Shown here: positions 59 to 24,000 of the stretch, piece by piece
Numbering within the stretch: position 1 is the stretch's first letter
Layout: each line of letters begins with the position of its first letter
Source of the DNA: Methylomagnum ishizawai
Lineage (GTDB): Bacteria; Pseudomonadota; Gammaproteobacteria; Methylococcales; Methylomonadaceae
Reading direction: 5' to 3'
DNA: 24,000 bases
Assembly: GCA_945861705.1 (NCBI GenBank)
Contig: CAMAVM010000011.1
Location: 57,799 to 81,798, forward strand
Made by a program: the position numbers and the translations under genes
The notes under the pieces: generated by a model
Told to the model about the DNA's origin: nothing
What the model saw: only the letters and a program-made list of their open reading frames with translations
Databases searched by the model: none

Positions 59-1318
59 TCAACACTTTTTACAGTGCCGCTCAACTGCTTTTCGTGCCCT
101 GTCTATTGCACCATTGTTATCATCATGAAGTTGAGGATTGTGTCGATCATCCTTACCACCATGCCATTTTTTAGTGTTGGCATCCCTTAATGCTTTACAG
201 TCCAACGCTCTTTGTAGTTTCCATTTAGCTATTTCGCAAGGATCAGTAAGGCCTGGTGGAACTTTTTCATTACATCGATTTTTATACTGCCTATTGTTTG
301 CACGGTATTCAATATCTTTTTGTAAATCATCGTATACACCTGGGTATTCTTCACCCCAAATTTCACTAATTATTACTCCACCACCCACCACAGCCGCACA
401 GATAAGCGGGTTCACCCAACAGTAAGCTATGACGGGTTCAACCCAAGGCAATGTTTGTGCAAACAACCCAGTGGGATCGACCGCATTGACCGGATTCCCA
501 TTGACATATGCATAAAAATTAACCCCCCCCTCCAACCCAATCGGGTCCGCCGTCACATACCTCCCTAACTCCGGGTCATAATAGCGGTGCCAATTATAGT
601 ATAGCCCAGTCTCGGCATCCTCGACTTGCCCGGAGAAGCGCAGGTTGGATTCAATGGTGGGCTTGTCCTCGGTTGCAATGGGCGTGGTGATGTTTACGTT
701 CCCAAAAGCGTTGTACTGCGCCGACCAGACGACAATACCGCTGCGGTCAGTGGCCTGGATAGGCGTGCCGAGGTGGTCGTGGTGGTAATAGGCGATGGTG
801 TTTTGGCCTGCGCTGTTCTTGGTCTTGATGAAAAGGGTGGCGGTGGTGAATTCGCCGTTTGGCCTTGGGCCGTATTGGGTGGTGATGGTTGGCGCTGTGG
901 TGGCTGTTACGTTTTGCCCCTCACCCTGGCCCTCTCCCACGGGGAGAAGGGGATTGATGGCTTGGCTGGCTTCGGCAATCAGGCCTTCGTCGCTGTACAG
1001 GTAATAACTGCGCTTGGGCTGGCTTAGGGGCGCGCCGTCCTTGTTGCGGTAGGCTTCTTTCCAAATCCTTCTGTCAAAGGGGTCGTAGCCGTAGCGGGCG
1101 ATGGGGTTGTTGTCCTTATCACTGACTTGGATGAGTCGGTTTTGGCTGTCGTAGCTGTAGTGGGTGCTGTTACCGCCTTGGGTTTTTTGAGTGAGGTTGC
1201 CTGTGGGGTCGTAGCTGTAGCTGGTTTTGCCCAGCAACAAGCCTTTTTCGGTGAGGCGGTTGTTGGCATCGTACTCCCAGCTTCCTACGTTCTTGCTGTG
1301 TTCTATGCGGTTGCCCAC
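59..1318 (-). CDS. RHS-repeat protein C-terminal fragment: RHS repeats, core-end motif, and a 134-aa C-terminal toxin-like domain. It is 5'-truncated and has no ATG.
   Basis: YD/RHS repeat text is present (YSYDPTGNL, YSYDSQNRL, YGYDPFDRR). The core-end motif reads RYYDPELGRYVTADPIGLEGGVNFYAYVNGNPVNAVDPTGL, with the final L at 464-466. A divergent tail follows at 62-463. The frame is open upstream only to a TAA at 1373-1375, and the only start is a GTG at 1318. Confidence 0.8.
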   Translation of the reverse strand: MGNRIEHSKNVGSWEYDANNRLTEKGLLLGKTSYSYDPTGNLTQKTQGGNSTHYSYDSQNRLIQVSDKDNNPIARYGYDPFDRRIWKEAYRNKDGAPLSQPKRSYYLYSDEGLIAEASQAINPLLPVGEGQGEGQNVTATTAPTITTQYGPRPNGEFTTATLFIKTKNSAGQNTIAYYHHDHLGTPIQATDRSGIVVWSAQYNAFGNVNITTPIATEDKPTIESNLRFSGQVEDAETGLYYNWHRYYDPELGRYVTADPIGLEGGVNFYAYVNGNPVNAVDPTGLFAQTLPWVEPVIAYCWVNPLICAAVVGGGVIISEIWGEEYPGVYDDLQKDIEYRANNRQYKNRCNEKVPPGLTDPCEIAKWKLQRALDCKALRDANTKKWHGGKDDRHNPQLHDDNNGAIDRARKAVERHCKKC

Positions 1319-4642: not shown

Positions 4643-4740
4643 ACGCGGGACGGGGTTTAAACCCCGTCCCAAACGTTTGCTGGTTATTTTCTTGATCTAT
4701 GCTGAAACGCTTCGGACGGGGCAACATGTCCAGTCCGGCT
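4643..4740 (-). repeat. Twin-hairpin dispersed repeat, copy C. It includes the perfect hairpin gggacgggg-tttaa-accccgtccc at 4647-4670, which probably acts as a terminator between convergent fusA and suhB.
   Basis: The reverse complement aligns by eye with 17083-17190: agccggac.gg.catgttgccccgt.cg.ag.gtttca.c ... acgt...gacgggg...ccccgtc.cgcg. Confidence 0.6.
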
Positions 4741-15338: not shown

Positions 15339-15524
15339 GATGATAGCGTAGATGAAATCGAAAACATTACCGAAGATTGCTGATGTTAACGACTATAAAC
15401 AAACTGGGGCTAATGTACAATTTTAATCAAAAAAGGTACTGGTTTGTAAACTAAGGAAACCCTTCGACAAGCTCATGGAAAGCTGTAAAATATTGATTTT
15501 AAATATGTATTAGCATATTGCTCA

Positions 15525-15609
15525 GTTCGTAGGATTTCAACGTGGTACCAAAGCCCATCTGTCGGTAAAGCATGAGTGACGGGGTAACATACTCCGTAGC
15601 GCGGAAGAC
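15525..15609 (+). repeat. Twin-hairpin dispersed repeat, copy A. It is degenerate and lacks the first hairpin.
   Basis: gttcgtaggatttcaacgtggtaccaaagcccatctgtcggtaaagcatgagtgacggggtaacatactccgtagcgcggaagac aligns with 17107-17189. The flank actgtaga...agagtta is also shared with copy B. Confidence 0.55.
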
Positions 15610-15645
15610 CCACTGTAGACCGTCGGGTGGAACGAAGAGTTAGAC
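15584..15645 (-). repeat. Possible degenerate terminal attC of the cassette array.
   Basis: GTTAGAC (15639-15645) abuts the stop of ORF 15640-15951, as at the other cassettes. A weak partner, ggtaac, lies at 15584-15589. Stem pairing is poor. Confidence 0.25.
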
Positions 15646-15951
15646 CTCGGGTACACGATCATAGCCTGACACGCCTAGCCACTCAATACGGCAGAAACCA
15701 GCATCGCGAAGGTATGCCACAGCCTCACGAAAGATAGGAAGACTGAACTCCTTAGGTGTGATGCCCCGAAGTAGTGAGCCTTGCTCAATATGCAGGAAGT
15801 ACACAGCATCTGGCTCTGACACGTAAGTACGGGCGATTATGGAGATTGACGCATCTGAGAAGCTGTAGAGATCGTATTCGTATCGCCATTCGTAGAGACC
15901 ATTGGTGTCAGGTTCACAGGTATCGACATAGCGAGACTTCTCGACGTGCAT
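15640..15951 (-). CDS. Hypothetical protein (cassette 10, the most distal).
   Basis: The 103-aa ORF fits exactly between attC 15956-16030 and the GTTAGAC at 15639-15645. I recognise no motif. Confidence 0.55.
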   Translation of the reverse strand: MHVEKSRYVDTCEPDTNGLYEWRYEYDLYSFSDASISIIARTYVSEPDAVYFLHIEQGSLLRGITPKEFSLPIFREAVAYLRDAGFCRIEWLGVSGYDRVPEV

Positions 15952-15955
15952 GGGG

Positions 15956-16030
15956 GACTAACGATAAGCTAAACGATGCAGTGCGACTTTATCACGCAGC
16001 ATCCAGCGACTGAAAGGAGCGAGGTTGAGC
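15956..16030 (-). repeat. attC recombination site (75 bp).
   Basis: gactaac-gataagctaa...gagcgag-gttgagc matches the array consensus. It lies immediately after the stop of ORF 16038-16187. Confidence 0.6.
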
Positions 16031-16037
16031 GGGATGT

Positions 16038-16187
16038 TTACCATTGCCACTTGCCTTGCCCTTTGATGAGTACCTTCGAGCTGCGGTTTACTACCAAAGC
16101 ACCATCGGGTGTAACCCTGTACGCGACGTTGCCATTTTTGAATTCGTAGCCTTCGTGGCTACAAGGGGTAACTAAATCAGGACACAT
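16038..16187 (-). CDS. Small 49-aa protein, the second gene of a two-gene cassette. It is not in the ORF track.
   Basis: The protein reads MCPDLVTPCSHEGYEFKNGNVAYRVTPDGALVVNRSSKVLIKGQGKWQW. Its ATG (16185-16187) lies within the last codons of the upstream ORF (ATGTGTCCTGA). Its stop is 8 nt from the attC. Confidence 0.45.
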   Translation of the reverse strand: MCPDLVTPCSHEGYEFKNGNVAYRVTPDGALVVNRSSKVLIKGQGKWQW

Positions 16188-16533
16188 GTGCATGATTGCT
16201 TTGCCCGTGAGAGTGATTGACTGTCGGTTTTTCCGTAACGCCTAAAATATTTGAAATTTCACCATCCCCGTAAGCTTCCTTCTTTGACAGGATAAGCGAT
16301 AACTTTTCTTTAATTTCGCCGAGGTGACCGCTATGACTTTGAGTGCTTTTGTTTATGACCTTATTTTTGTGTGTCCGCCCATCCTTTTCAAGTCTCGCCT
16401 TAAGTACCGTGTTCTCCTGCTTAAGCGCAGCATTCTCCTTTTCGAGCAACGCTATTTGTTTTTCAGAATCAACAAGCCGTTCTTTATAGATGGCAGACAA
16501 TGGAATTTCTTTAAGCCAGTCAAGGATAGCCAT
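16177..16533 (-). CDS. Coiled-coil hypothetical protein, the first gene of a two-gene cassette. The start is trimmed to MAILDWL.
   Basis: The tracked N-terminus (16534-16623) lies inside attC 16551-16673. A heptad-like stretch reads KQIALLEKENAALKQENTVLKARLEK. Confidence 0.55.
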   Translation of the reverse strand: MAILDWLKEIPLSAIYKERLVDSEKQIALLEKENAALKQENTVLKARLEKDGRTHKNKVINKSTQSHSGHLGEIKEKLSLILSKKEAYGDGEISNILGVTEKPTVNHSHGQSNHAHVS

Positions 16534-16550
16534 ATATGCGTTTCCGAAAT

Positions 16551-16673
16551 GCCTAACGTAAAAGTAAGGGGCGCGCCGGATGACAAAGTTTAATAAAGCC
16601 GACGAACCCAAATAAATGACCAACCTTCAAAAGCGCCTTCGTCCGGCGCGTCCCTTTGACTGGCATGTTAGGC
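16551..16673 (-). repeat. attC recombination site (123 bp).
   Basis: gcctaac-gtaaaagtaaggggcgcgccggatgac...gtccggcgcgtccctttgactggcat-gttaggc has long imperfect inverted arms. It starts 18 nt after the stop of ORF 16691-17122. Confidence 0.8.
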
Positions 16674-16690
16674 CACATAAATACTTTCCC

Positions 16691-17122
16691 TTATAGGAGT
16701 TTTAGTATGACAGATTTGTAAAGCCATATTACAGCGCTTATTAATACCAAAATTAAAGGTAGCAGTAAAATTGCATAAACCCACTTAATTTTAGTTTTTT
16801 TAGACACCCCGTTAAGAATGAACCCAATGATGAAAATGGTGATTCCAGCAGGAATTGTTAATGGTAGGCCAGAAAAGCCAAAAATTAACAATAAACCAAG
16901 TACCAATACAGTCGGTTTCTCGACCTGGACGGGAAGGTAAGTGCAACTATGGGATTGAAGGTTACAATCAAATAATATGCCAAACAGCATTCCCAGAATA
17001 AAAATGATAATTGGAAAAAGTCCAATACTTAAACTAAAGAAAAGAAGCCGGGAAACCCAGTTTGTGCTCTGAGCAGCTAACCCAGCCGGACGGGGCATGT
17101 TGCCCCGTTCGTAGGGTTTCAA
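16691..17122 (-). CDS. Small integral membrane protein (cassette 8). The start is uncertain.
   Basis: Four hydrophobic helices are visible. The first ~13 codons (about 17083-17122) are encoded by repeat copy B, so the real start may be the internal ATG at 17099 or further downstream. Confidence 0.55.
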   Translation of the reverse strand: MKPYERGNMPRPAGLAAQSTNWVSRLLFFSLSIGLFPIIIFILGMLFGILFDCNLQSHSCTYLPVQVEKPTVLVLGLLLIFGFSGLPLTIPAGITIFIIGFILNGVSKKTKIKWVYAILLLPLILVLISAVIWLYKSVILKLL

Positions 17123-17190
17123 CGTGGTTCAAAAACGCCACCGTCGGCAAAACGTAAGTGACGGGGTACATACCCCGTCACGCGGAAGAG
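17083..17190 (+). repeat. Twin-hairpin dispersed repeat, copy B, the most complete copy.
   Basis: Hairpin 1 is cggacggggca-tgt-tgccccgttcg and hairpin 2 is gtgacggggt-acat-accccgtcac. They are separated by tagggtttcaacgtggttcaaaaacgccaccgtcggcaaaacgtaa. Confidence 0.6.
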
Positions 17191-17245
17191 TACCAACACC
17201 AAATATCCAGACTGTAGATTTATAGAGTTGATAACGAATCATGTT

Positions 17246-17371
17246 GCCTAACGCAGAGCTAAGGGGCGGTTTGCCCGATGATAACGACAACGGAGACGAC
17301 AAATGACTGATAAATCACAGGATTTAAAGAACGCACTGGGGCAAAACGTCCCTTTGAGCGACATGTTAGGT
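17246..17371 (-). repeat. attC recombination site (126 bp).
   Basis: gcctaac-gcagagctaaggggcggtttgccc...ggggcaaaacgtccctttgagcgacat-gttaggt. Its first 17 nt are identical to those of attC 19636-19725. Confidence 0.75.
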
Positions 17372-17629
17372 ATGAATAATGGGGATTTGAACACACCATT
17401 AAAAATTAACAACATAAAAAATTACCAAACCAGAATTAGATGTGCCCGCGAAGATTTGATGTTGGCAAAAGAAAGACACGGCGAAAACTCCGATGAATAT
17501 AAAAAGCAACTGGAACGTTCATTTTCATTTATAAGGGGAATATTTGTTGAAATTCTCTGTGTTTCTGAGACCTGTTTCAATAACCTTCTTTTTGATAACA
17601 AGAACCAAACCACTCAAATTGACCAATAG
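17372..17629 (+). CDS. Hypothetical protein on the strand opposite to the array. This is a doubtful call.
   Basis: The ORF is open from inside the attC. The first ATG outside the core is 17372. It lies in an AT-rich segment and overlaps the 3' end of the minus-strand ORF by 53 nt. Confidence 0.3.
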   Translation: MNNGDLNTPLKINNIKNYQTRIRCAREDLMLAKERHGENSDEYKKQLERSFSFIRGIFVEILCVSETCFNNLLFDNKNQTTQIDQ

Positions 17630-17897
17630 TTTTAAGAGCCGCATTAAACAACAACCTTTCCTCTGGGTCGCCAAGTTGAAGGTCAGTGCTGTACTCAAAC
17701 GAACAAAGGCAAGCATTTGAATCATAGAAAACATTTTTTACAAGATGATGCACATTCTCAACAGCAGCAGCCCTAGCAAACAAAATCATTTCGGCGAGTT
17801 CGTGCGCCCTACCATGCCTGGTGCATATCTCTATACCAAAGGCGGACATAGCATCAACGTTTACTTGCTGAACTTTTTCTTCAAAATAATCAATCAT
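17577..17897 (-). CDS. Hypothetical protein (cassette 7). The start is trimmed to MIDYFEEK.
   Basis: The tracked start at 17957 lies inside attC 17915-17983. The ATG at 17897 lies 17 nt beyond the attC edge. Confidence 0.5.
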   Translation of the reverse strand: MIDYFEEKVQQVNVDAMSAFGIEICTRHGRAHELAEMILFARAAAVENVHHLVKNVFYDSNACLCSFEYSTDLQLGDPEERLLFNAALKTIGQFEWFGSCYQKEGY

Positions 17898-17914
17898 GGG
17901 TTTGTTCCTGTAAT

Positions 17915-17983
17915 ACCTAACGTGGAGGTCACCGGCCTTGCGCGGCTTTTCGCGCAAGGTCCGTGTGGACCGCAGGGTTAGAA
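17915..17983 (-). repeat. attC recombination site (69 bp).
   Basis: acctaac-gtggaggtcaccggccttgcgcggcttttcgcgcaaggtccgtgtggaccgcagg-gttagaa. It is very similar to attC 21788-21856. Confidence 0.8.
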
Positions 17984-17987
17984 CGCA

Positions 17988-18722
17988 TTACTTCACCGCC
18001 GGTGGTTGACCACCACGTAGGACCTGAACGGCTGGATCATTTGCAAGCACTTGCACCTCGATTCTCCGCCCAGTATTTGTTCCGAGATATGGCTTCATAG
18101 CGGTAACCATGTATGGAACGACAAGCCGAAGATCACCGCTTGAACCAGTGCTCACAACACTGGTCTTCCATACCTGTGTCATTTTCTTTTCCTTTATATA
18201 GGTCGGCACGTCGTAAGCGTCCAGATATAGAAATCTGGAGTACACCGTATCTGCTCCGACATGCGTTGTTGACCCTGTGACGCCGTAAGTTGGCGTGTAT
18301 GTGGTGGTGCCGGAGTAAGTGGCCATGCCCCCATAGGAAGACACTGTCCCGTAGGTGTTTGACGAGGACACGCCCGTTTGTCCCCAAGTAGGAAGTGAAT
18401 ACGTGTATTGATAGGTTTGGGGATCGCCTATCGCGTAGGCTAGAAAAATCGCTACGTCTGCATCTTGCAACGCCGCGGCCTTGACGAATCCCTTCTCGGA
18501 CAAGACCTTTTCTACGTAAGCCGCGAATTCTTGAAACTGTAGATCGCCAGCCTCGACTCCCTTTCCGCCGGGCAATAGGACGTACCGCTTCTTAGCGACT
18601 GCGTCAGCTTGGGCAAGCGAATCAACGTTCGACAATAACCGGGTTGGCTGCATGCCGGCGCAACCCGACAGAAAGGCGACCCCCATAAGCAGCGATGCCA
18701 AAAAAATGTTTTTGAGACGCAT
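17988..18722 (-). CDS. Lipoprotein (cassette 6), possibly DUF4136-like, with an S/T/G/Y-rich central region.
   Basis: The signal and lipobox read MRLKNIFLASLLMGVAFLSG|C. A low-complexity stretch reads TYQYTYSLPTWGQTGVSSSNTYGTVSSYGGMATYSGTTTYTPTYGVTGSTT. Confidence 0.8.
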   Translation of the reverse strand: MRLKNIFLASLLMGVAFLSGCAGMQPTRLLSNVDSLAQADAVAKKRYVLLPGGKGVEAGDLQFQEFAAYVEKVLSEKGFVKAAALQDADVAIFLAYAIGDPQTYQYTYSLPTWGQTGVSSSNTYGTVSSYGGMATYSGTTTYTPTYGVTGSTTHVGADTVYSRFLYLDAYDVPTYIKEKKMTQVWKTSVVSTGSSGDLRLVVPYMVTAMKPYLGTNTGRRIEVQVLANDPAVQVLRGGQPPAVK

Positions 18723-18750
18723 GAAGCCTTCTTTGTGCGTGGTGTATGCG

Positions 18751-18813
18751 TTCTAACGTAGAATTAACCGGCTCCGCGCTTTTGCGGAGTCCGAGTTGAA
18801 TGTCGGGTTAGGC
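18751..18813 (-). repeat. attC recombination site (63 bp).
   Basis: ttctaac-gtagaattaaccggctccgcgcttttgcggagtccgagttgaatgtcgg-gttaggc. The stop of ORF 18808-19626 lies inside the GTTAGGC core. Confidence 0.75.
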
Positions 18814-19626
18814 CACGATGCATGGTGGAACCCATTGTTCTATGCTGCTGTGACCACGCGGAAGTAAAAGCTCGATACTTCTCTTTCCCCGCTGAATTTG
18901 GCTGATTATGGGATGCTCAGGGTTATTCCGGCTCTCTGTGTCTGGGCCGTAGAAATACCCACAGCCACCATCGCGCGTAGCGCGAAATCTGTTGTTGATG
19001 CTTTCAATGACCTGCGCTGAGTCGGAAAAAACAAAAGTTCCGTAATGGACGTTCGTGCTCCAAAGAACGCCAAGACCATTTACGTCGTTATCAAATATGG
19101 CGCGAACATTCGAGATGCAGCGTTGAATCCAGTACGGCCAGAGGACGCACTCAATACCAAAGTGGCTTTCAGCTTCTGCCTTGCGAATTGACGGATGCTC
19201 AGGGCTTGAGTTGTATTGCGATGGTGCGAAATGACTCGGGCCGTGAAATTCAACGAGTTTTGAAATACCATCAACCGAAACTTTCAGATCGACGCGCCTC
19301 CTGCCCCAAGGCACCTGATGCTCTACGGTGGCGTTTGGATACGCAAGCTCTATCAATTTCACGAGGATCATTTCATCAAGGCTTACGCTAGCATTTCCGA
19401 TTTTGGCAGGTGGGGAATTGGGTATAGCACTTGCGTACCAAAGTTTTTGAAGTTCACGTTCGTCAATGGCCTCGATGCCGTTCCAGTTTTTGAACGGGAC
19501 TGATTGAACGTCACTCTCGGTTACGCCGAGAATTTCGACAACATCGCTTTTGCTCAACATTGAGCCCACGCATGAGTCGCTGCTGTGGAGTTCAAACAAG
19601 CCTTGGGGGCGACCGAGGATTCCCAT
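18808..19626 (-). CDS. Hypothetical protein with a DUF559/Vsr-like (PD-(D/E)xK-type) endonuclease motif (cassette 5).
   Basis: GRRRVDLKVSVDGISKLVEFHGPSHF resembles the D...(V/I)E(F/V)(D/H)G..H core of DUF559/Vsr-fold nucleases. The ORF fills the cassette exactly. Confidence 0.6.
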   Translation of the reverse strand: MGILGRPQGLFELHSSDSCVGSMLSKSDVVEILGVTESDVQSVPFKNWNGIEAIDERELQKLWYASAIPNSPPAKIGNASVSLDEMILVKLIELAYPNATVEHQVPWGRRRVDLKVSVDGISKLVEFHGPSHFAPSQYNSSPEHPSIRKAEAESHFGIECVLWPYWIQRCISNVRAIFDNDVNGLGVLWSTNVHYGTFVFSDSAQVIESINNRFRATRDGGCGYFYGPDTESRNNPEHPIISQIQRGKRSIELLLPRGHSSIEQWVPPCIVA

Positions 19627-19635
19627 ATGTGATTG

Positions 19636-19725
19636 GCCTAACGCAGAGCTAACCGGGCGCGCCCCGCAGGAATGAAGATGGAAACAAAGATTGATGACGC
19701 GCTCCGGTTGAGCGGAGGGTTAGGC
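19636..19725 (-). repeat. attC recombination site (90 bp).
   Basis: gcctaac-gcagagctaaccgggcgcgcc...gcgctccggttgagcggagg-gttaggc. Confidence 0.8.
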
Positions 19726-19746
19726 ATCATTTTACAGGAGATTGGC

Positions 19747-20043
19747 ATGGGTATTTATTATGTAATTGCTTGCGATGAACTAAAAGAAAAAATTGAGCCT
19801 GGGAGCATTAACAATCTGGGTATTAAACAGCGCGCAATCGCTCACCCAGATCACCCGTTTGGTCCGGTATCTGTTTTTGCTCTCGTTACAAGATGGAGAG
19901 ACAAAGCTGCGCGGGTTTTGAACGACGGCGGCGATGATCCTGGATACTTCGAGTACACAGATGTTACACAACAGATTATTGATGAGTACAACTCGGAGTA
20001 TAGGACCGCGTTGAAGTTCACCGGCGACGATGATGACGCATAA
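19747..20043 (+). CDS. Hypothetical 98-aa protein with an acidic C-terminal tail, in the opposite orientation to the array (cassette 4).
   Basis: An AGGAG RBS at 19735-19739 lies 7 nt before the ATG at 19747. The tracked start at 19672 lies inside the attC. The tail reads KFTGDDDDA. The stop overlaps the gcataac core. Confidence 0.55.
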   Translation: MGIYYVIACDELKEKIEPGSINNLGIKQRAIAHPDHPFGPVSVFALVTRWRDKAARVLNDGGDDPGYFEYTDVTQQIIDEYNSEYRTALKFTGDDDDA

Positions 20044-20169
20044 CGTTCGAGCTAAGCTGGCGACAACGGCATGGCGCGCTGGACGGCAAGCGCAAAATGG
20101 GCCGCAGGCCCAGCGCTTGATGGCCAGCGTGACATGCCGTTGGCGCTCAGCTTGAGCGAGGGGTTAGGC
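20038..20169 (-). repeat. attC recombination site (132 bp).
   Basis: gcataac-gttcgagctaagctggcgacaacggcatg...catgccgttggcgctcagcttgagcgagggg-ttaggc has long inverted arms. The tracked ORF 20052-20273 (-) lies almost entirely within it. Confidence 0.75.
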
Positions 20170-20196
20170 CTCGCTGCGCAAGTGCTTGCAAAGCGC

Positions 20197-20225
20197 TTGA
20201 CAAGCACATAGCAAGCGCTTAGAGT
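20197..20225 (+). promoter_or_regulatory. Sigma70-type promoter for the SeqA-like gene.
   Basis: TTGACA (20197-20202) is followed by a 17-nt spacer and TAGAGT (20220-20225), 46 nt upstream of the ATG. It is embedded in four AAG(T/C)GCTT repeats, which are possible operator sites. Confidence 0.5.
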
Positions 20226-20271
20226 GCTTACTACGCGCTGCTTGAGCGTGGGCGATGAGCGAGGGACAACC

Positions 20272-20769
20272 ATGAAGACTATTGATGTTGAAGACGATGT
20301 GTACCACTACATAGCTGCGCAAACCAAGGAGATCGGCGAGCCTGCAACAAGCATTCTTCGGAGGCTGCTAGGCGTGCCTACCAGTGCCCAACCCGCCCAA
20401 CCTAAAGCAGCGATGGTAGCGGCGCAACTGCATGAGTTGGCATTGCTGCTTGCGCAGCCCATGTTCTCTAGTTCGACGACTGCAGTGGCCCGGATGCTCC
20501 GGATCTTCAGGGAGGTTCATGCGCAGAAGAAGCAGGATTTTGCAAAGGTGCTCCAGATCCAGGGTCGCAATAGAGCTTACTTTGCAAAGAGCGAACATGA
20601 AATTTTGAAGTCAGGAAAGAGCACCCAGCCTCGCGAGATTGAAGGTACTGGATTCTGGGTAATGACGAACTCGCCGACGCAGCAAAAGCAGCAGATGGTC
20701 CGCGAAGTGCTCGAAGTGCTTGGGTACAGCCCAGCTGCCACTAAGGCGGCAGTCGCGGTGATTCAATAA
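20272..20769 (+). CDS. seqA: SeqA-like protein (cassette 3), in the opposite orientation to the array.
   Basis: The N-terminus MKTIDVEDDVYHYIAAQTKEIGEPATSILRRLL parallels E. coli SeqA [33 protein letters not shown]. The C-domain GRNRAYFAKSEHEILKSGKSTQPREIEGTGFWVMTNSPTQQK parallels [42 protein letters not shown]. The RBS gaggga lies 5 nt before the ATG at 20272. Confidence 0.8.
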   Translation: MKTIDVEDDVYHYIAAQTKEIGEPATSILRRLLGVPTSAQPAQPKAAMVAAQLHELALLLAQPMFSSSTTAVARMLRIFREVHAQKKQDFAKVLQIQGRNRAYFAKSEHEILKSGKSTQPREIEGTGFWVMTNSPTQQKQQMVREVLEVLGYSPAATKAAVAVIQ

Positions 20770-20800
20770 TCGTGGTGCCGCCAAGGCCTTGTTCTGCGAG

Positions 20801-20911
20801 GCCTAACGTTTAAGCTAATCGGCATTTTGCGGCATGCGGTATTTGGGCGAGAATGAAACGATGCCGAAATACCGCATGCCGCAAAATGTCCGGCTGAGCG
20901 AATGGTTAGCC
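20801..20911 (-). repeat. attC recombination site (111 bp).
   Basis: gcctaac-gtttaagctaatcggcattttgcggcatgcggtat...ataccgcatgccgcaaaatgtccggctgagcgaatg-gttagcc. It abuts the stop of ORF 20913-21770. Confidence 0.8.
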
Positions 20912-20912
20912 A

Positions 20913-21770
20913 TCACTGCGGCAAAATTCCGTCAACAACTTCAACCCCGAGCAAATTGCTCAGGGCCTTCAATTTTGATGGCAGATTGGATTCAAGTACC
21001 AGAATCGCTCGGGCATCGCATGTTCTAGACTGCGACAGCAGTACCGCATCAAGAATGGCTTGATATTTGACGCATTGAAATATTCCTCGAACAATATCAG
21101 GCTCGGCAGACAGTCTTGACTTTACTTCGACGGCAAACCACTGCTTAGCTAGATTGAACGAAACATCTAGTGAATCGCCGGATGGAAGCCTGAACTCTGT
21201 TGTGCCGATTGTTGAAGACGCGGGAAGCCCAACTATTTTCGGGTTCTTGGCGACGTAGTCCTTGAGTCGTTTGTGTTCAGGACTTTCACCACCGCCGAGG
21301 TTGCCTGATGCTTTGACTAGTTCTACTGCGAAATTGACTTCAGCCGGCTCGAGTTCCAAGTCTTCGAGTACACAGGCCCAGTGAGGGTATGCATAAATAT
21401 GTTGCAGCTCAGCCTGCACTATTTCTCGTCTTCTTCGCAATGGAAGCTTGGAGAAATCCTCTTTTGAGATTAGAAACCAGCCAATCCCTTCTCCCGGAAT
21501 GCCTGTCGCTTTGTTGACGACCAAGCACTGGATAGGTGGAATCTTCTCCTTCCACTTCTTTGAGAGTTGCAACATGGCTTGACCAACGCTGCCGAGCACA
21601 TAGTTGAGATTTCTGGGATTTGGCATGCCCAACTCTTCTGCCAGATCAGAGTAGAAAATTGACTTACCGGCAGTAGCTTGTCTAACCAATAGAGGTAGCG
21701 CGGCGCGAGCGCGTTCTTGATACAGCTTATCGCCAGAAATTGAGGAGGCAGTTTTGGCCGTGGTGGGCAT
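20913..21770 (-). CDS. Hypothetical two-domain protein (cassette 2): an N-terminal wHTH-like region and a C-terminal PD-(D/E)xK nuclease-like domain.
   Basis: The C-terminal half reads GGGESPEHKRLKDYVAKNPKIVGL...LPSGDSLDVSF...WFAVEVKS...IFQCVKYQ, which fits a D...(D/E)xK arrangement. The N-terminus reads IPPIQCLVVNKATGIPGEGIGWF. Confidence 0.65.
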   Translation of the reverse strand: MPTTAKTASSISGDKLYQERARAALPLLVRQATAGKSIFYSDLAEELGMPNPRNLNYVLGSVGQAMLQLSKKWKEKIPPIQCLVVNKATGIPGEGIGWFLISKEDFSKLPLRRRREIVQAELQHIYAYPHWACVLEDLELEPAEVNFAVELVKASGNLGGGESPEHKRLKDYVAKNPKIVGLPASSTIGTTEFRLPSGDSLDVSFNLAKQWFAVEVKSRLSAEPDIVRGIFQCVKYQAILDAVLLSQSRTCDARAILVLESNLPSKLKALSNLLGVEVVDGILPQ

Positions 21771-21787
21771 CGGTGACTTTCTGTGAT

Positions 21788-21856
21788 GGCTAACGTGGAG
21801 CTCAGGGGCGCTGCGCGGCTTTATCGCGCAGCGTCCCTTGGAGCGCAGGGTTAGAA
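21788..21856 (-). repeat. attC recombination site (69 bp).
   Basis: ggctaac-gtggagctcaggggcgctgcgcggctttatcgcgcagcgtcccttggagcgcagg-gttagaa. It lies 1 nt from the stop of ORF 21858-22133. Confidence 0.8.
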
Positions 21857-21857
21857 C

Positions 21858-22133
21858 TTAACGCGACCATTCTTGGCATTTGCTTTGCTGCCCAAACATA
21901 TCTGAACTCCGACTATCTTGCCCAGTGAAACCAAGACCCTCGCACACGACTTTTATTCTTCGTCCCAAAGACGAATGAAGCTGGTGAAACGGCGTATCGG
22001 TATCAATCGCGGCCAAGGCATCAACGTAGCGACGTTGGTTTCTATGCGCTAGCTCCCTAATTACTAAGTGGGAATCAAACGGTGCGTTGAGTGATTCAAC
22101 TACTTCGGTTATTGCAACATCCCAATCTTCCAT
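21858..22133 (-). CDS. Hypothetical 91-aa protein (cassette 1, adjacent to attI).
   Basis: The ATG lies 22 nt downstream of the GTTAGAA junction, with aaagg 7 nt upstream. I recognise no motif. Confidence 0.6.
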   Translation of the reverse strand: MEDWDVAITEVVESLNAPFDSHLVIRELAHRNQRRYVDALAAIDTDTPFHQLHSSLGRRIKVVCEGLGFTGQDSRSSDMFGQQSKCQEWSR

Positions 22134-22153
22134 ATCGCTTACCTTTTCTGATG

Positions 22154-22175
22154 AGTTCTAACTACAATTAGACAT
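22154..22175 (-). other. attI-like core at the attI x first-cassette junction.
   Basis: The minus strand reads GTCTAAT-tgta-GTTAGAA, an L/R-box-like inverted pair ending in the GTTRRRY core. It is followed directly by cassette 1. It lies about 110 nt from the intI 5' remnant. Confidence 0.5.
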
Positions 22176-22260
22176 CCCAATAGACGCAAAACATTGCGTC
22201 ATCAGTTTGTCTAAACTTTTATAAAAATGTAAAATAACTTTAATTTCATTCATGTGTGAG

Positions 22261-22288
22261 AATTTAGCACACCCTAAGATAAATGCAA
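22261..22288 (-). promoter_or_regulatory. Candidate cassette promoter (Pc-like) reading into the array.
   Basis: The minus strand reads TTGCAT (22288-22283), a 16-nt spacer, then TGc-TAAATT (-10 at 22266-22261, with an extended-10 TG). The -35 overlaps the ATG of the intI remnant. Confidence 0.3.
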
Positions 22289-22357
22289 TACCTTTCAGAA
22301 AATTTACCCGTACAAGCACCCAAACTGCTCGATAAAGCTAGGGGGAAAATCCATTTA
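22283..22357 (+). pseudogene. Remnant copy of the first 25 codons of intI.
   Basis: It translates as [25 protein letters not shown], against [25 protein letters not shown] at 23068-23142. That is 20/25 identical by hand alignment. After that the sequences diverge. Confidence 0.6.
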
Positions 22358-22459
22358 ACCCGTGGCGTAAAAGGGGCGATAATTGCGTTGCGCCGTATGG
22401 GTTTGAATAAAAACGGTGTGCATTGTGTACTTTTAACGCTTCACTAAGGTAACTGTAAT

Positions 22460-22696
22460 ATGAAAACATCACTGTCTGAGCGTATCACAACCAATCCTGA
22501 AATTTGTCACGGTAAACCCTGTATCCGCGGCTTGCGCTATCCTGTTGAAACCGTTCTAGAATGGTTGGGTTCAGGCATGAGTGCGGAAGAAATTCTTGAC
22601 GATTACCAAGATATTGAACACGAGGATATTCTGGCTGCCCTTAGTTTTGCATCCCGCGTGGTCAAGATTAAACGTATCGAGATGTTAGCGGCATGA
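22460..22696 (+). CDS. DUF433-family antitoxin-like protein.
   Basis: ITTNPEICHGKPCIRGLRYPVETVLEWLGSGMSAEEILDDYQDIEHEDILAAL is the typical DUF433 core. The gene has a 4-nt ATGA overlap with the next gene. Confidence 0.85.
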   Translation: MKTSLSERITTNPEICHGKPCIRGLRYPVETVLEWLGSGMSAEEILDDYQDIEHEDILAALSFASRVVKIKRIEMLAA

Positions 22697-23046
22697 ATTT
22701 TCTTGTCGATGCACATTTGCCACGTCATTTGGCTTTGCTACTGAAAGAGCATGGCTACGATGCTATTCATACTTTGGATTTGGCGGAAGGTAATCGAACG
22801 ACAGATAGCCGAATCAATGAATTATCAGTGAGTGAACAGCGCGTTGTCATCACCAAGGATGCTGATTTCGTCAATTCGTTTTTGATATTGAAACAACCTT
22901 ATAAGCTGTTGCTGGTTTCTACTGGGAATATATCCAACAAGGAGCTTATGGGGATATTTGCGAAGAACTTGCCTCAGATTATTTCGGCACTGACTATTTA
23001 TGATTATCTGGAATTGACTCGCATTTCTTTGATCGAGCATGGATAA
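22693..23046 (+). CDS. DUF5615-family (PIN-like) toxin-like protein.
   Basis: MNFLVDAHLPRHLALLLKEHGYDAIH...VVITKDADF is typical of the DUF5615 partners of DUF433. It is translationally coupled to the upstream gene. Confidence 0.8.
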   Translation: MNFLVDAHLPRHLALLLKEHGYDAIHTLDLAEGNRTTDSRINELSVSEQRVVITKDADFVNSFLILKQPYKLLLVSTGNISNKELMGIFAKNLPQIISALTIYDYLELTRISLIEHG

Positions 23047-23067
23047 CTGATGCAGACACGTGACGCA

Positions 23068-24000
23068 ATGCAATACCCTTCAGAAAATTTACTTGTGCAA
23101 GCGCCCAAGTTGCTCGATCAAGTCAGGGGAAAAATCCGTTTGAAACATTACAGTATCCGTACCGAGCAGGCGTATACGGATTGGATTAAACGTTTTATCC
23201 TGCATTTTGGCAAGCGGCACCCGCGTGATATGGGCGCGGCGGAAGTGGAGCAGTTTTTGACGCATTTGGCGGTGAATGGCAATGTCGCCGCGTCTACGCA
23301 AAATCAGGCCAGGTGCGCTTTGTTGTTCCTTTATAAGGAAGTGTTGGCGATAGAATTGCCTTGGCTGGATAATGTGGCGCAAGCCAAAACGCCTAAGCGT
23401 TTACCTGTGGTGTTGAACCGTGATGAGATTCAGGCGATTTTGTCGCGCTTGAGCGGTACGCAATGGTTGATTGCCAGCTTGCTGTACGGGACGGGAATGC
23501 GGATTATGGAATGTTTGCGCTTGCGGGTGCAGGATATTGATTTTAAACGCCGTGAGATTTTGATCCGTGACGGCAAGGGGTTTAAGGACAGGGTGACGAT
23601 GTTGCCCGTATCTTTGTCGGCAGCATTGCAAGCGCATCTCGCCAAGGTGCGGACGTTGCACGAGGGCGATCTGGCGCAGGGTTTCGGCGCGGTGTACTTG
23701 CCGTATGCCCTTGAACGCAAATATCCCAATGCGGCAAAGGAGTGGATTTGGCAGTATGTGTTTCCTGCGGCTAAAGTTTCAACTGATCCGCGTACTCAGG
23801 CGGTGCGTCGTCATCATGTGCAAGAACAGGCGATACAACGGGCGGTTAAGCAAGCGGTGCGCGATGCGGACTTAACAAAAGCAGCCACGCCGCATACGTT
23901 TCGGCATTCGTTCGCCACCCATTTGCTGGAAGGCGGTTACGATATTCGCACGGTGCAGGAGTTGCTTGGTCATGCGGATGTCAGTACGACGATGATTTAC
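23068..24000 (+). CDS. intI: Integron integrase IntI, truncated at its 3' end by the window edge. An alternative in-frame start is the ATG at 23050.
   Basis: The frame is open to the last base of the window. It is collinear with IntI1: [41 protein letters not shown]. The IntI-specific insertion is present ([21 protein letters not shown]...RRHH), as are [12 protein letters not shown] and [13 protein letters not shown]. Confidence 0.95.

Follow-up and report, generated by a model that had tools for sequence, protein, structure and literature searches.

Evidence for a sedentary chromosomal integron with a toxin-antitoxin pair between attI and intI in an uncultured proteobacterium

The integron integrase IntI is a tyrosine recombinase that recognizes the folded bottom strand of attC. 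Cassettes are excised by IntI through attC × attC recombination and circular cassettes go in at attI, with the core being cut between G and TT; cassettes near attI are expressed and distant ones are stored. Described sedentary chromosomal integrons include the Vibrio cholerae superintegron and those of Xanthomonas, Nitrosomonas and Methylococcus strains found with IntegronFinder (PMC8527097). Integron cassettes have been shown to encode phage defense (bioRxiv 10.1101/2024.07.02.601719; PMC12614218), and toxin-antitoxin cassettes have also been described (Richard et al. 2024, PMC13108822).

We examined a stretch of 24,000 nucleotides (the window) from an uncultured freshwater-type proteobacterium, in which the region from 15.6 to 24.06 kb very likely constitutes a complete, probably active, sedentary chromosomal integron. 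This identification is based on an intact IntI, an attI junction and a one-orientation attC array, each of which passed the tests described below, and these parts and their geometry are established from the DNA. As in other sedentary chromosomal integrons, there is an intI with the IntI-specific domain and a divergent attI, the attC-bounded cassettes are mostly of unknown function and directed away from intI, the locus is fixed in related lineages while the arrays differ, and some attC types are common within the lineage (sites B and C also occur in L093). Differences were the presence of ∼10 cassettes, compared to tens to hundreds in Vibrio, the heterogeneity of the attC sites, which do not form one repeated type, and the location of a toxin-antitoxin pair in the attI-intI platform, with none inside the array.

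The intI gene starts at position 23068 on the plus strand and its frame is stop-free to 24000. The window holds 311 of the 329 codons, with the end located 57 nt beyond it, and the missing last 19 codons were read from the source contig (ENA ERZ27280223 k141_1080117; L001, 110 kb). The initial annotation had read this frame as IntI and had made the reading dependent on a tyrosine recombinase C terminus in its continuation; the whole of that C terminus is present in L001, including the catalytic Tyr motif MIYTHV. Scores of 458 bits for the partial protein and 491 bits for the completed 329-aa protein (model positions 1 to 314 of 315) were obtained with TIGR02249, "integron integrase" (cutoff, 265 bits). 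An end-to-end alignment with VchIntIA (PDB 2A3V) covered 313 residues, including the IntI-specific segment (E = 1e-89), although the identity between the two sequences is modest. The nearest relatives were from freshwater and soil Beta- and Gammaproteobacteria (62 to 90% identity). Overall, these comparisons indicated that intI encodes an intact, family-specific integron integrase. Its description as unannotated holds only in a relative sense, as cluster-mates are named "integron integrase" in IMG. Another possible ATG is present at 23050; the intI start in relatives is the ATG equivalent to 23068.

An attC covariance model built from the window sites detected 143 attC sites across 80 other intI loci. 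Every one of them was upstream of intI (300 kb of upstream and 603 kb of downstream sequence were searched) and 142 were on the strand opposite intI. A further model, R3, was then trained solely on these 143 sites of other genomes. Within the window, R3 recovered eight attC sites over their full length, each of them on the minus strand and located between 16549 and 21858 (51 to 70 bits; E values of 1e-10 to 5e-15), and it had no match with an E value of <1 outside the array on either strand of the 24 kb. These were sites I (21788 to 21856, 69 nt, 69.9 bits, E = 4.6e-15), H (20801 to 20911, 111 nt, 53.1 bits), G (20038 to 20169, 132 nt, 51.2 bits), F (19636 to 19725, 90 nt, 62.1 bits), E (18751 to 18813, 63 nt, 66.4 bits), D (17915 to 17983, 69 nt, 67.1 bits), C (17246 to 17371, 126 nt, 56.1 bits) and B (16551 to 16673, 123 nt, 62.5 bits), the last sharing 86.6% identity with one attC in L093. 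Site F was also recovered by a three-site model, R1, whose training excluded it. Nine sites of 63 to 132 bp with RYYYAAC/GTTRRRY cores had been proposed, and a covariance model had been named as the check; eight were strong and passed, as judged with a model built in this analysis and not that of IntegronFinder, while the ninth (15954 to 16044) was marginal at 15 bits (E = 0.07). This degenerate minus-strand site, A (15956 to 16042, 87 nt), retains the cores and first L pairs and has lost the inner stem. Each site had also been placed within 0 to 18 nt of an ORF stop; for the cassettes that end at I, H, E, D, B and A, the stop abuts or overlaps R″, but the minus-strand ORF at site C ends 205 nt away.

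Among the eight well-formed sites, pairing extended to 98% of cells, compared to 26 to 49% in slid controls, and compensatory changes were detected at 11 of 19 pairs. The R″/L″ arm has unpaired bases at positions 16, 20 and 24, at which G16, A20 and T24 have been reported for attC_oxa2 (PMC5027507). These L″-arm bulges, the R″/R′ cores, a 5- to 6-nt unpaired central spacer and a variable terminal structure are all features of the VchIntIA/attC system (PMC5027507, PMC2727003). The attC bottom strand is here the plus strand of the window.

The attI region, with the ancestral attI-intI intergenic region, is located at 22146 to 22281 (minus strand) and contains a simple site, GTCTAAT TGTA G|TTAGAA (minus strand, 22172 to 22155), in which a G/TT cut would fall at 22162|22161. 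In five contigs (L002, L003, L004, L010 and L093), agreement with the window is seen on the right side of CTAAC and is lost on its left. In L003 and L004, which come from other samples, identity with the window extends as far as CTAAC, beyond which the first cassette is a different one, and L002 stops exactly at the junction. The attI-like GTCTAAT-N4-GTTAGAA core of the initial annotation was confirmed as a junction by this comparison, which fixes the crossover at 22161/22162 as a real junction. Distal cassettes were identical in other samples. As at least three first cassettes occur among contigs with the toxin-antitoxin insert, turnover went on after the insertion. The contigs showing the first-cassette variation are short metagenomic assemblies and might conceivably be chimeric; taken as assembled, they demonstrate that cassettes turn over at attI within the population.

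A 785-bp insert bearing a DUF433/PIN-like toxin-antitoxin pair lies between the two copies of an ∼80-nt stretch duplicated from the intI 5′ end. A remnant copy of intI, comprising its initial ∼80 nt (22282 to 22361, plus strand), is a direct repeat of 23067 to 23146 and opens a 54-aa ORF (22283 to 22447). It aligns colinearly with the attI-intI region in L010 and L093, the two closest relatives sampled, both of which lack the insert. The DUF433 antitoxin-like gene (22460 to 22696, plus strand, 78 aa; PF04255, 91.9 bits) overlaps by 4 nt the PIN-like toxin gene (22693 to 23046, plus strand, 117 aa; precomputed Pfam matches to DUF5615/PIN_10/Mut7-C), whose stop is 4 nt before the ATG at 23050 and 22 nt before the ATG at 23068. 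Because of this insertion, the attI core does not adjoin intI but precedes it by ∼900 bp. Neither the insertion nor the duplication featured in the first reading of the window. The segment has entered the 5′ end of intI in this lineage, with ∼80 nt duplicated. The intact intI, directly behind the toxin gene, is most likely cotranscribed with it from either the old intI promoter or the toxin-antitoxin promoter. The pair may drive intI transcription; being away from its native promoter, intI may be poorly expressed. A search for a Pc facing the array yielded no convincing candidate, and a LexA box was sought and not found, in contrast to sedentary chromosomal integrons. The type II-like pair resembles integron toxin-antitoxin cassettes (PMC13108822) in being tied to the integron, whose locus it would stabilize, but it is not a cassette and lies, without an attC, within the duplicated 5′ end of intI. 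With no attC and a position outside the array, the pair cannot be excised by IntI. This location is one unusual detail of an otherwise normal integron.

The left flank of the integron consists of housekeeping genes (those for EF-G, a SuhB-like protein, TrmJ, CysE and LplT). The same chromosomal locus is occupied in the sister lineage, L093 (89.7% nucleotide identity in intI and 85.6% in the downstream gene), but by an entirely different array, with no toxin-antitoxin insert and no cassette ORF in common with the window. The left flank and the syntenic downstream gene support the chromosomal setting proposed initially.

The observations were weighed against three other explanations. That the repeats are ordinary intergenic palindromes or terminators beside a Xer-like recombinase was suggested by a dispersed hairpin repeat in the genome, two copies of which are superficially attC-like and lie in the region. 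The true sites are, however, confined to the array in one orientation and have RYYYAAC/GTTRRRY cores, conserved bulged bases and compensatory changes; the same model finds arrays solely upstream of intI in 43 other genomes, and the recombinase bears the IntI-specific domain. This explanation was rejected after the R3 search and covariation test and is extremely improbable. A mobile integron on a transposon or plasmid, akin to classes 1 to 5, is very unlikely. While cassette 5 also occurs in a different genus and the attC sites vary as widely in length (63 to 132 nt) and sequence as those of mobile integrons, the 110-kb contig has housekeeping genes on its left flank, intI is followed by the same downstream gene in a lineage ∼86 to 90% identical in nucleotide sequence, no transposase or Tn402-like genes adjoin, and IntI scores 390 bits with the class 1-type equivalog model NF011946, below the cutoff of 435.

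The remaining alternative is a relic, in which the platform and repeats are real but the integrase was cut off from its promoter by the toxin-antitoxin insertion and the array is frozen. The 785 bp between attI/Pint and intI, the failure to find a LexA box or clear promoter directly upstream of intI and the decay of distal attC sites are consistent with this scenario. Nevertheless, the intI frame is intact with every catalytic motif, its start 4 to 22 nt past the toxin stop makes read-through transcription likely, and three or more distinct first cassettes are seen at one junction among insert-bearing contigs. A relic is unlikely, and a probably active integron is the preferred reading.

The array comprises nine attC-bounded cassettes and a tenth with a truncated attC. 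The main ORF is in the array direction in eight cassettes and antisense in two, containing the SeqA-like and 98-aa genes, which must therefore use their own promoters. Cassette 1 (21858 to 22133, minus strand) encodes 91 aa, with a 36%-identical paralogue as the first cassette of L004. Cassette 2 (20913 to 21770, minus strand) encodes a 285-aa protein of a widespread family (>1,800 homologues) with a C-terminal PD-(D/E)xK-like domain and invariant residues D199, D202, E215 and K217; a Pfam search gave no match, the AF2 model had a pLDDT of 87.6, and matches to nuclease folds were weak. The 272-aa Vsr/PD-(D/E)xK-like protein of cassette 5 (18808 to 19626, minus strand) has 201 homologues, some labeled Vsr endonuclease by JGI, an AF2 model with a pLDDT of 90.1 and matches to Hjc, SfsA and Bax1. 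The earlier designation of cassette proteins as nuclease-like was thus upheld by fold and motif only. From the cassette start exactly to R″, cassette 5 is 88.7% identical in nucleotide sequence to a cassette of a Methyloversatilis metagenome-assembled genome whose IntI is just 68% identical to that of the window, which, at the sequence level, demonstrates cassette sharing with another genus.

Cassette 3 (20272 to 20769, plus strand) encodes a 165-aa SeqA homologue, as first proposed, with Pfam SeqA_N and SeqA matches, a full-length alignment with Escherichia coli SeqA (3FMT) and 69 homologues; a promoter-like TTGACA-17-TAGAGT, read by eye, lies upstream at ∼20200 to 20240. The 98-aa ORF of cassette 4 (19747 to 20043, plus strand) has a TAA stop that forms part of the boundary core TAAC, and nearly all of its 59 homologous clusters start at residue 24 of a 121-aa ORF. 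The lipoprotein and membrane protein previously noted are evident in cassette 6 (17988 to 18722, minus strand; 244 aa, lipobox LSGC, weak DUF4136 match) and cassette 8 (16691 to 17122, minus strand; ≤143 aa, hydrophobic, start uncertain), the latter without a match in family searches. The 106-aa ORF of cassette 7 (17577 to 17897, minus strand; phrog_29216, PHROG E = 2.9e-18) is overlapped by a convergent plus-strand ORF (17303 to 17629), and homologues of both occur together in a single L020 cassette. Cassette 9 (16038 to 16533, minus strand) contains a 118-aa coiled-coil ORF (16177 to 16533) and a 51-aa ORF (16038 to 16193), both identical in L007. No resistance or known defense family was matched by the cassette proteins, in agreement with the earlier statement that no antibiotic resistance gene is recognizable, and the earlier summary of content almost wholly of unknown function was broadly right. 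Like phage defense cassettes, these are compact, single-gene and uncharacterized, and two have nuclease-like folds and are widespread across phyla, but none matched PADLOC models; a defensive role is only a guess.

Cassette 10 (15640 to 15951, minus strand), the last of the array, encodes 103 aa and is identical in L007 and L008. The array end (15513 to 15645) consists of a half attC, GTCTAAC TCTTC GTTCCACC (minus strand, 15645 to 15620), followed by host-repeat copy J (15513 to 15608). The integron proposed for 15584 to 24000 was therefore borne out, with its left limit corrected to ∼15620 to 15645. Copy J and copy K (17095 to 17190, inside cassette 8) were rejected as attC sites: R3 finds neither, and a third copy of this dispersed host repeat is located outside the integron at 4644 to 4740.

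The plus-strand frame that starts at position 23068 has no stop codon before the end of the window and had been read in the initial annotation as a textbook integron integrase. The partial IntI scored 458 bits against the NCBIfam model TIGR02249, "integron integrase" (cut-off, 265). The last 19 codons of intI were read from the source contig L001, which is the 110-kb metagenome contig k141_1080117 of ENA ERZ27280223 and on which the coordinate equals the window coordinate minus 12692, and ended in ...MIYTHVLNKGGRGVSSPLDQF followed by a stop codon. The full protein of 329 aa reached 491 bits over model positions 1 to 314 of 315. Alignment with VchIntIA (PDB 2A3V) extended over 313 residues (E = 1e-89) and covered the catalytic R, K, HxxR, H and Y motifs as well as the IntI-specific insertion, a segment common to both proteins. 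The catalytic residues and the whole C-terminus, including MIYTHV, were found in the protein completed from L001, and the reading of this frame was thus borne out. With one genome per species considered, the nearest IntI was 90% identical and was encoded by a Methylococcaceae MAG, which had intI and attI alone in common with the window locus and exhibited no synteny. The next-nearest IntIs, 62 to 83% identical, were from freshwater and soil Beta- and Gammaproteobacteria.

Repeat analysis upstream of intI detected two families of conserved ends, a left family of the form (G)CCTAACG...AGCTAA and a right family of the form CGTCCC..GAGCG...GTTAG, which paired into nine sites of 63 to 132 nt, lettered I to A from the attI-proximal to the distal end. 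The attC definition used comprised RYYYAAC/GTTRRRY cores, an imperfect hairpin, bulged bases, an unpaired spacer and a variable loop (PMC5027507), and membership was limited to lengths of 57 to 141 nt with all sites in one orientation. On the minus strand, the layout was R'' (..CTAAC), a 5-nt spacer, L'', a variable loop, L', a 5- to 6-nt spacer and R' (GTTAG..). The R''/L'' arm had unpaired bases at positions 16, 20 and 24. Position 16 was C in every site (G on the other strand). At position 20, sites D and E had a true bulge, sites I, C, B and H had a mismatch, and the base was paired in sites F and G. The three positions coincide with those of the extrahelical bases G16, A20 and T24 of attC_oxa2 (Nivina et al. 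2016, PMC5027507), indicating that the plus strand is the recombinogenic bottom strand.

For the eight well-formed sites, the arms were aligned after the loops had been trimmed by hand; 98% of cells were standard pairs, with changes on both sides in 11 of 19 pairs. When the partner arm was slid by 1 to 3 columns as a control, pairing fell to 26 to 49%. Covariance model R2, for which the eight window sites served as input, was applied to 80 intI loci of other species (981 kb) and detected 143 sites at E ≤ 1e-3. Every one of these was on the upstream side of intI (300 kb was searched upstream versus 603 kb downstream), and all except one (142/143) were on the strand opposite intI; pairing was 96%, with compensatory changes in 15 of 19 pairs. 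A further model (R3), built from the 143 foreign sites alone, was run on both strands of the whole window with filters off. Eight full-length matches of 51 to 70 bits (E values of 1e-10 to 5e-15) were obtained, all on the minus strand, for sites I (21786-21858), H (20799-20913), G (20036-20171), F (19634-19727), E (18749-18815), D (17913-17985), C (17244-17373) and B (16549-16675). Site A (15954-16044, minus strand) was degenerate, keeping the cores and the first L pairs and having lost the inner stem, and scored 15 bits (E = 0.07). Outside the array, R3 gave nothing below E = 1 on either strand of the window. The count and size range that had been proposed for the attC sites were therefore upheld, and eight of the nine sites passed a covariance model trained on foreign sites, which is not the model used by IntegronFinder; the ninth was marginal. 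Rfam, which has no attC family, returned nothing relevant at gathering thresholds or at E ≤ 1, a match to mir-2_2 being the hairpin of attC H. Two models were set aside for use in the window: R1, from three short sites, was over-fitted and gained one extra site, and R2, from trimmed sites, was unable to bridge the long loops there and worked on the foreign loci.

The attI core had been proposed as GTCTAAT-N4-GTTAGAA, and the minus strand at 22172-22155 reads GTCTAAT TGTA GTTAGAA. Contigs from other metagenome samples that carry an identical toxin gene were used for comparison. These agreed with the window rightward of CTAAC (22162), and left of this junction the window reads AACTCATC..., contig L004 reads GCAGGGGTG... 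and then enters a different 92-aa ORF, and contig L003 reads CAGGCACG..., so that three different sequences lie beyond GTTAG. The 106-kb contig L002 and the related contig L010 stop exactly at the junction. Agreement up to CTAAC followed by divergence placed the crossover at G/TT, between 22162 and 22161, and this cross-contig junction confirmed the attI core. The comparison showed that the population carries no fewer than three distinct cassettes in first position. Cassettes 8 to 10 were identical in other-sample contigs, one of which, L008, was from the same sample as L003. New cassettes at attI combined with stable distal ones would be what an active integron is expected to show. The locus thus pins the attI crossover to the base and makes natural first-cassette variation visible across metagenome samples.

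Cassette boundaries were computed from the crossovers and gave lengths of 368 to 987 nt with a GC content of 0.40 to 0.57. A counterpart of cassette 5, with 88.7% nucleotide identity across 837 nt, was found as a cassette in a Methyloversatilis MAG (L069), and the IntI of that MAG is only 68% identical to the one in the window. The homology (window 18757-19641; L069:1208-2044) began precisely at the cassette start (TTAGGCCAATCAC...) and stopped precisely at R'' (GGCCTAAC), and the inner attC of the L069 cassette, comprising spacer, L boxes and loop, differed and by eye matched the L/loop stretch of attC I. In addition, window attC E was nearly identical to an attC of a Methylobacter MAG (L045:3130-3196), where it accompanies a different gene. 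These swapped attC interiors indicated that ORFs and attC interiors reassort, a finding that bears on cassette making or attC homogenisation. The polymorphism of the first cassette and the sharing of a cassette from its boundary to R'' offer indirect support for the predicted IntI-catalysed recombination of attC sites with attI and with each other.

The integron spans from ∼15.6 kb to the window end, and the left part of the contig contains housekeeping genes (EF-G, inositol monophosphatase, trmJ, cysE, an MsbA-like ABC exporter, yihY and lplT). In L093, a JGI metagenome contig of a sister lineage, intI was 89.7% identical at the nucleotide level and the downstream gene was 85.6% identical over 3.8 kb, which identified the same locus. 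None of the window cassette proteins was encoded in L093, and the only attC types in common were B (86.6%) and C (73%); an apparent similarity of the plus-strand ORF of cassette 7 to L093 was discarded, as the matching part was the shared attC. The comparison of array content across relatives suggested by the initial annotation therefore gave the same locus with a different array and favoured a sedentary integron whose array varies. This is a fixed chromosomal locus, common to related lineages, without a transposon or plasmid backbone. The mobile classes 1 to 5 were not indicated, as the IntI scored 390 bits against the class-1-type equivalog NF011946, below the cut-off of 435, and no transposition genes were found nearby. 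With about ten cassettes and attC sites heterogeneous in length and sequence, the array is neither large nor built of closely similar attC sites; the array-size criterion for sedentary integrons is a convention and not a mechanism. Overall, the tests of IntI, attI and attC indicated that a chromosomal integron with about ten cassettes had been correctly observed and correctly interpreted. A preprint (bioRxiv 10.64898/2026.03.17.712381) puts the share of bacterial genomes with integrons at roughly 17%, and integrons have also been reported in Methylococcus strains (PMC8527097). The present locus extends the record by a single well-resolved chromosomal integron, found in an uncultured lineage whose closest IntI is in a Methylococcaceae MAG, and leaves the understanding of integrons unchanged.

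Several features of the surroundings were also recorded. The left window edge (59-1318, minus strand) carries an ORF whose product has an RHS repeat-associated core domain, corresponding to a polymorphic-toxin C-terminal region. Beyond the window, a 1,240-aa RP005_N-domain protein is encoded downstream of intI (L001:11576-15298) and is conserved there in L093, and a protein of >1,800 aa with SdrD_B repeats is located at L001:16157-20354. Cumulative GC skew climbed along the whole window, which at 24 kb is too short to decide the leading strand. If the plus strand is leading, the attC bottom strands would be on the lagging-strand template; large chromosomal integrons are reported to have the opposite orientation.

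A distinct difference from the two closest relatives was detected between attI and intI. In L010 and L093, 125 nt separate attI from the intI ATG downstream. In the window, the attI-proximal sequence leads directly into an ∼80-nt copy of the intI 5' end (22282-22361) that breaks off into a 54-aa ORF, and a second 80-nt copy (23067-23146), 88% identical to the first, starts the intact intI. Between the two copies are an antitoxin-type DUF433 gene (22460-22696, plus strand; PF04255, 91.9 bits) and a PIN-like DUF5615 gene of 117 aa (22693-23046, plus strand; matches to PF18480, PF18478 and PF01927), which overlap by 4 nt. On the basis of gene size, adjacency, overlap and domains, these genes are predicted to form a type II toxin-antitoxin pair. 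As the insert is absent from the relatives and its flanks are copies of the intI 5' end, we concluded that it is derived, 785 bp in length and duplication flanked. At ∼80 nt, this direct duplication is a long one. The toxin-antitoxin pair was directly upstream of intI in 6/6 contigs returned for the toxin, and the 54-aa remnant ORF was present in all five of those reaching far enough upstream. The insert-bearing contigs differed in the first cassette, indicating that recombination went on after insertion. We know of no description of a toxin-antitoxin pair within an integron platform between attI and intI.

The intI start is 4 to 22 nt past the toxin stop. A consensus scan detected no promoter-like site directly upstream of intI, and the same scan, read for a cassette promoter Pc directed into the array, found minus-strand promoter-like sites only inside the toxin-antitoxin genes and none between attI and the intI remnant. 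A search from attI to intI for a LexA box (CTGT-N8-ACAG, ≤2 mismatches) gave one chance site, inside the antitoxin gene. The simplest reading of this arrangement is that intI would be cotranscribed with the toxin-antitoxin pair. Insertion of the pair between attI/Pint and intI would then have generated a toxin-antitoxin-intI operon in which toxin-antitoxin autoregulation, in place of the customary SOS/LexA control, could set integrase expression and hence cassette shuffling, and the module might also make the platform itself addictive. As far as we are aware, such an architecture for integron regulation is undescribed. We consider it unlikely that either this regulatory proposal or a role of cassettes 2 and 5 as new anti-phage nucleases is correct. 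The locus provides a natural case for asking how integrase expression is wired without a LexA box.

The nuclease-like cassette proteins noted in the initial annotation were examined for cassettes 2 and 5. Cassette 2 encodes a 285-aa protein (20913-21770, minus strand) with >1,800 homologues and no Pfam model. The best 120 of these homologues are 64 to 100% identical and include non-proteobacterial members, with Chitinivibrio and Desulfuromonadaceae represented, a level of conservation that is unusually high for a mobile gene of unknown function. Residues D199, D202, E215 and K217 are invariant, and the AF2 model had a pLDDT of 87.6. Matches to PDB structures were weak (best E = 3e-3) and were almost all to PD-(D/E)xK nucleases, including XisH, Card1/Can2, the R2 endonuclease, and nicking and restriction enzymes. 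The 272-aa protein of cassette 5 (pLDDT, 90.1) has 201 homologues, some labelled Vsr endonuclease by JGI, and matched Hjc, SfsA, Bax1 and the R2 endonuclease with probabilities of up to 0.99 and E ≥ 5e-3. No PADLOC or NCBIfam functional model was matched, and hence "nuclease-like" holds for these two proteins as a description of fold and motifs. With a PD-(D/E)xK-like fold, they might belong to new families of anti-phage nucleases encoded by single genes.

Cassette 3 encodes a 165-aa SeqA-like protein (20272-20769, plus strand, antisense to the array) with matches to both the N-terminal oligomerisation domain (PF17206, 59 bits) and the C-terminal DNA-binding domain (PF03925, 102 bits). It aligned over its full length with Escherichia coli SeqA 3FMT, in agreement with the SeqA homologue claimed among the cassettes. 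A score of 158.5 bits against the equivalog NF008389, below the cut-off of 185, did not establish orthology to the replication regulator. The stretch TNTNTGRK of E. coli SeqA, in the SeqA structure the loop contacting hemimethylated GATC, is TNSPTQQK in cassette 3. A promoter-like TTGACA-17-TAGAGT sequence is present upstream of the gene. Only 69 homologues were detected, mostly on short environmental contigs, and this clade of ∼165-aa proteins was found outside the usual SeqA-bearing orders. In Sulfuriferula sp. GW1, a SeqA-like gene (L090:8001-8498) adjoins a PIN7 gene ∼1.6 kb from an attC array; it was rejected as a cassette, being beside the array and not demonstrably inside it.

Searches of the cassette proteins against PADLOC, PHROGs, Pfam, NCBIfam and PDB sequences assigned no function; the exceptions were SeqA, phrog_29216 and a weak match to DUF4136. 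Neither PADLOC nor the NCBIfam models for resistance or other functions gave a match, consistent with the initial statement that no antibiotic-resistance gene is recognisable. Cassette 1 encodes a 91-aa protein of unknown function, a 36%-identical paralogue of which is encoded by the first cassette of L004. The antisense 98-aa protein of cassette 4 belongs to a family of 59 clusters; a start inside the attC loop was ruled out, since nearly all homologues start at residue 24, outside the attC. Cassette 6 encodes a 244-aa lipoprotein (the DUF4136 match), and cassette 7 (17303-17897) contains two convergent overlapping ORFs, one of 106 aa (minus strand), which matched phrog_29216, a phage family of unknown function, and one of up to 108 aa (plus strand). 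Both of these ORFs have homologues in a single cassette of a Rhodocyclaceae MAG (L020). The remaining products are a hydrophobic protein of up to 143 aa (cassette 8), a 118-aa coiled-coil protein accompanied by a 51-aa ORF (cassette 9) and a 103-aa protein (cassette 10). In practical terms, the array supplies cassettes for screening, above all that of the 285-aa family and also that of the Vsr-like 272-aa family.

Two attC-like repeats, J (15513-15608) and K (17095-17190), which are 80% identical and have AAC/GTT-like ends, were considered as attC numbers 10 and 11. Neither was matched by R3, and a third copy was found outside the integron at 4644-4740, between the convergent EF-G and phosphatase genes; these sequences are therefore copies of a dispersed host repeat. 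The repeat is ∼100 nt in length and contains two hairpins, GGGGCA...TGCCCC and GACGGGGT...ACCCCGTC. A half attC on the minus strand at 15645-15620 (GTCTAAC TCTTC GTTCCACC) is followed by copy J, which stands in place of the distal half of the last attC. This indicated that the site of cassette 10 is without its L'/R' half and that the array ends there, ∼280 nt from lplT. Copy K is inside cassette 8 and on the minus strand resembles an intrinsic terminator, with a 10-bp stem and then TTACGTTTTG.
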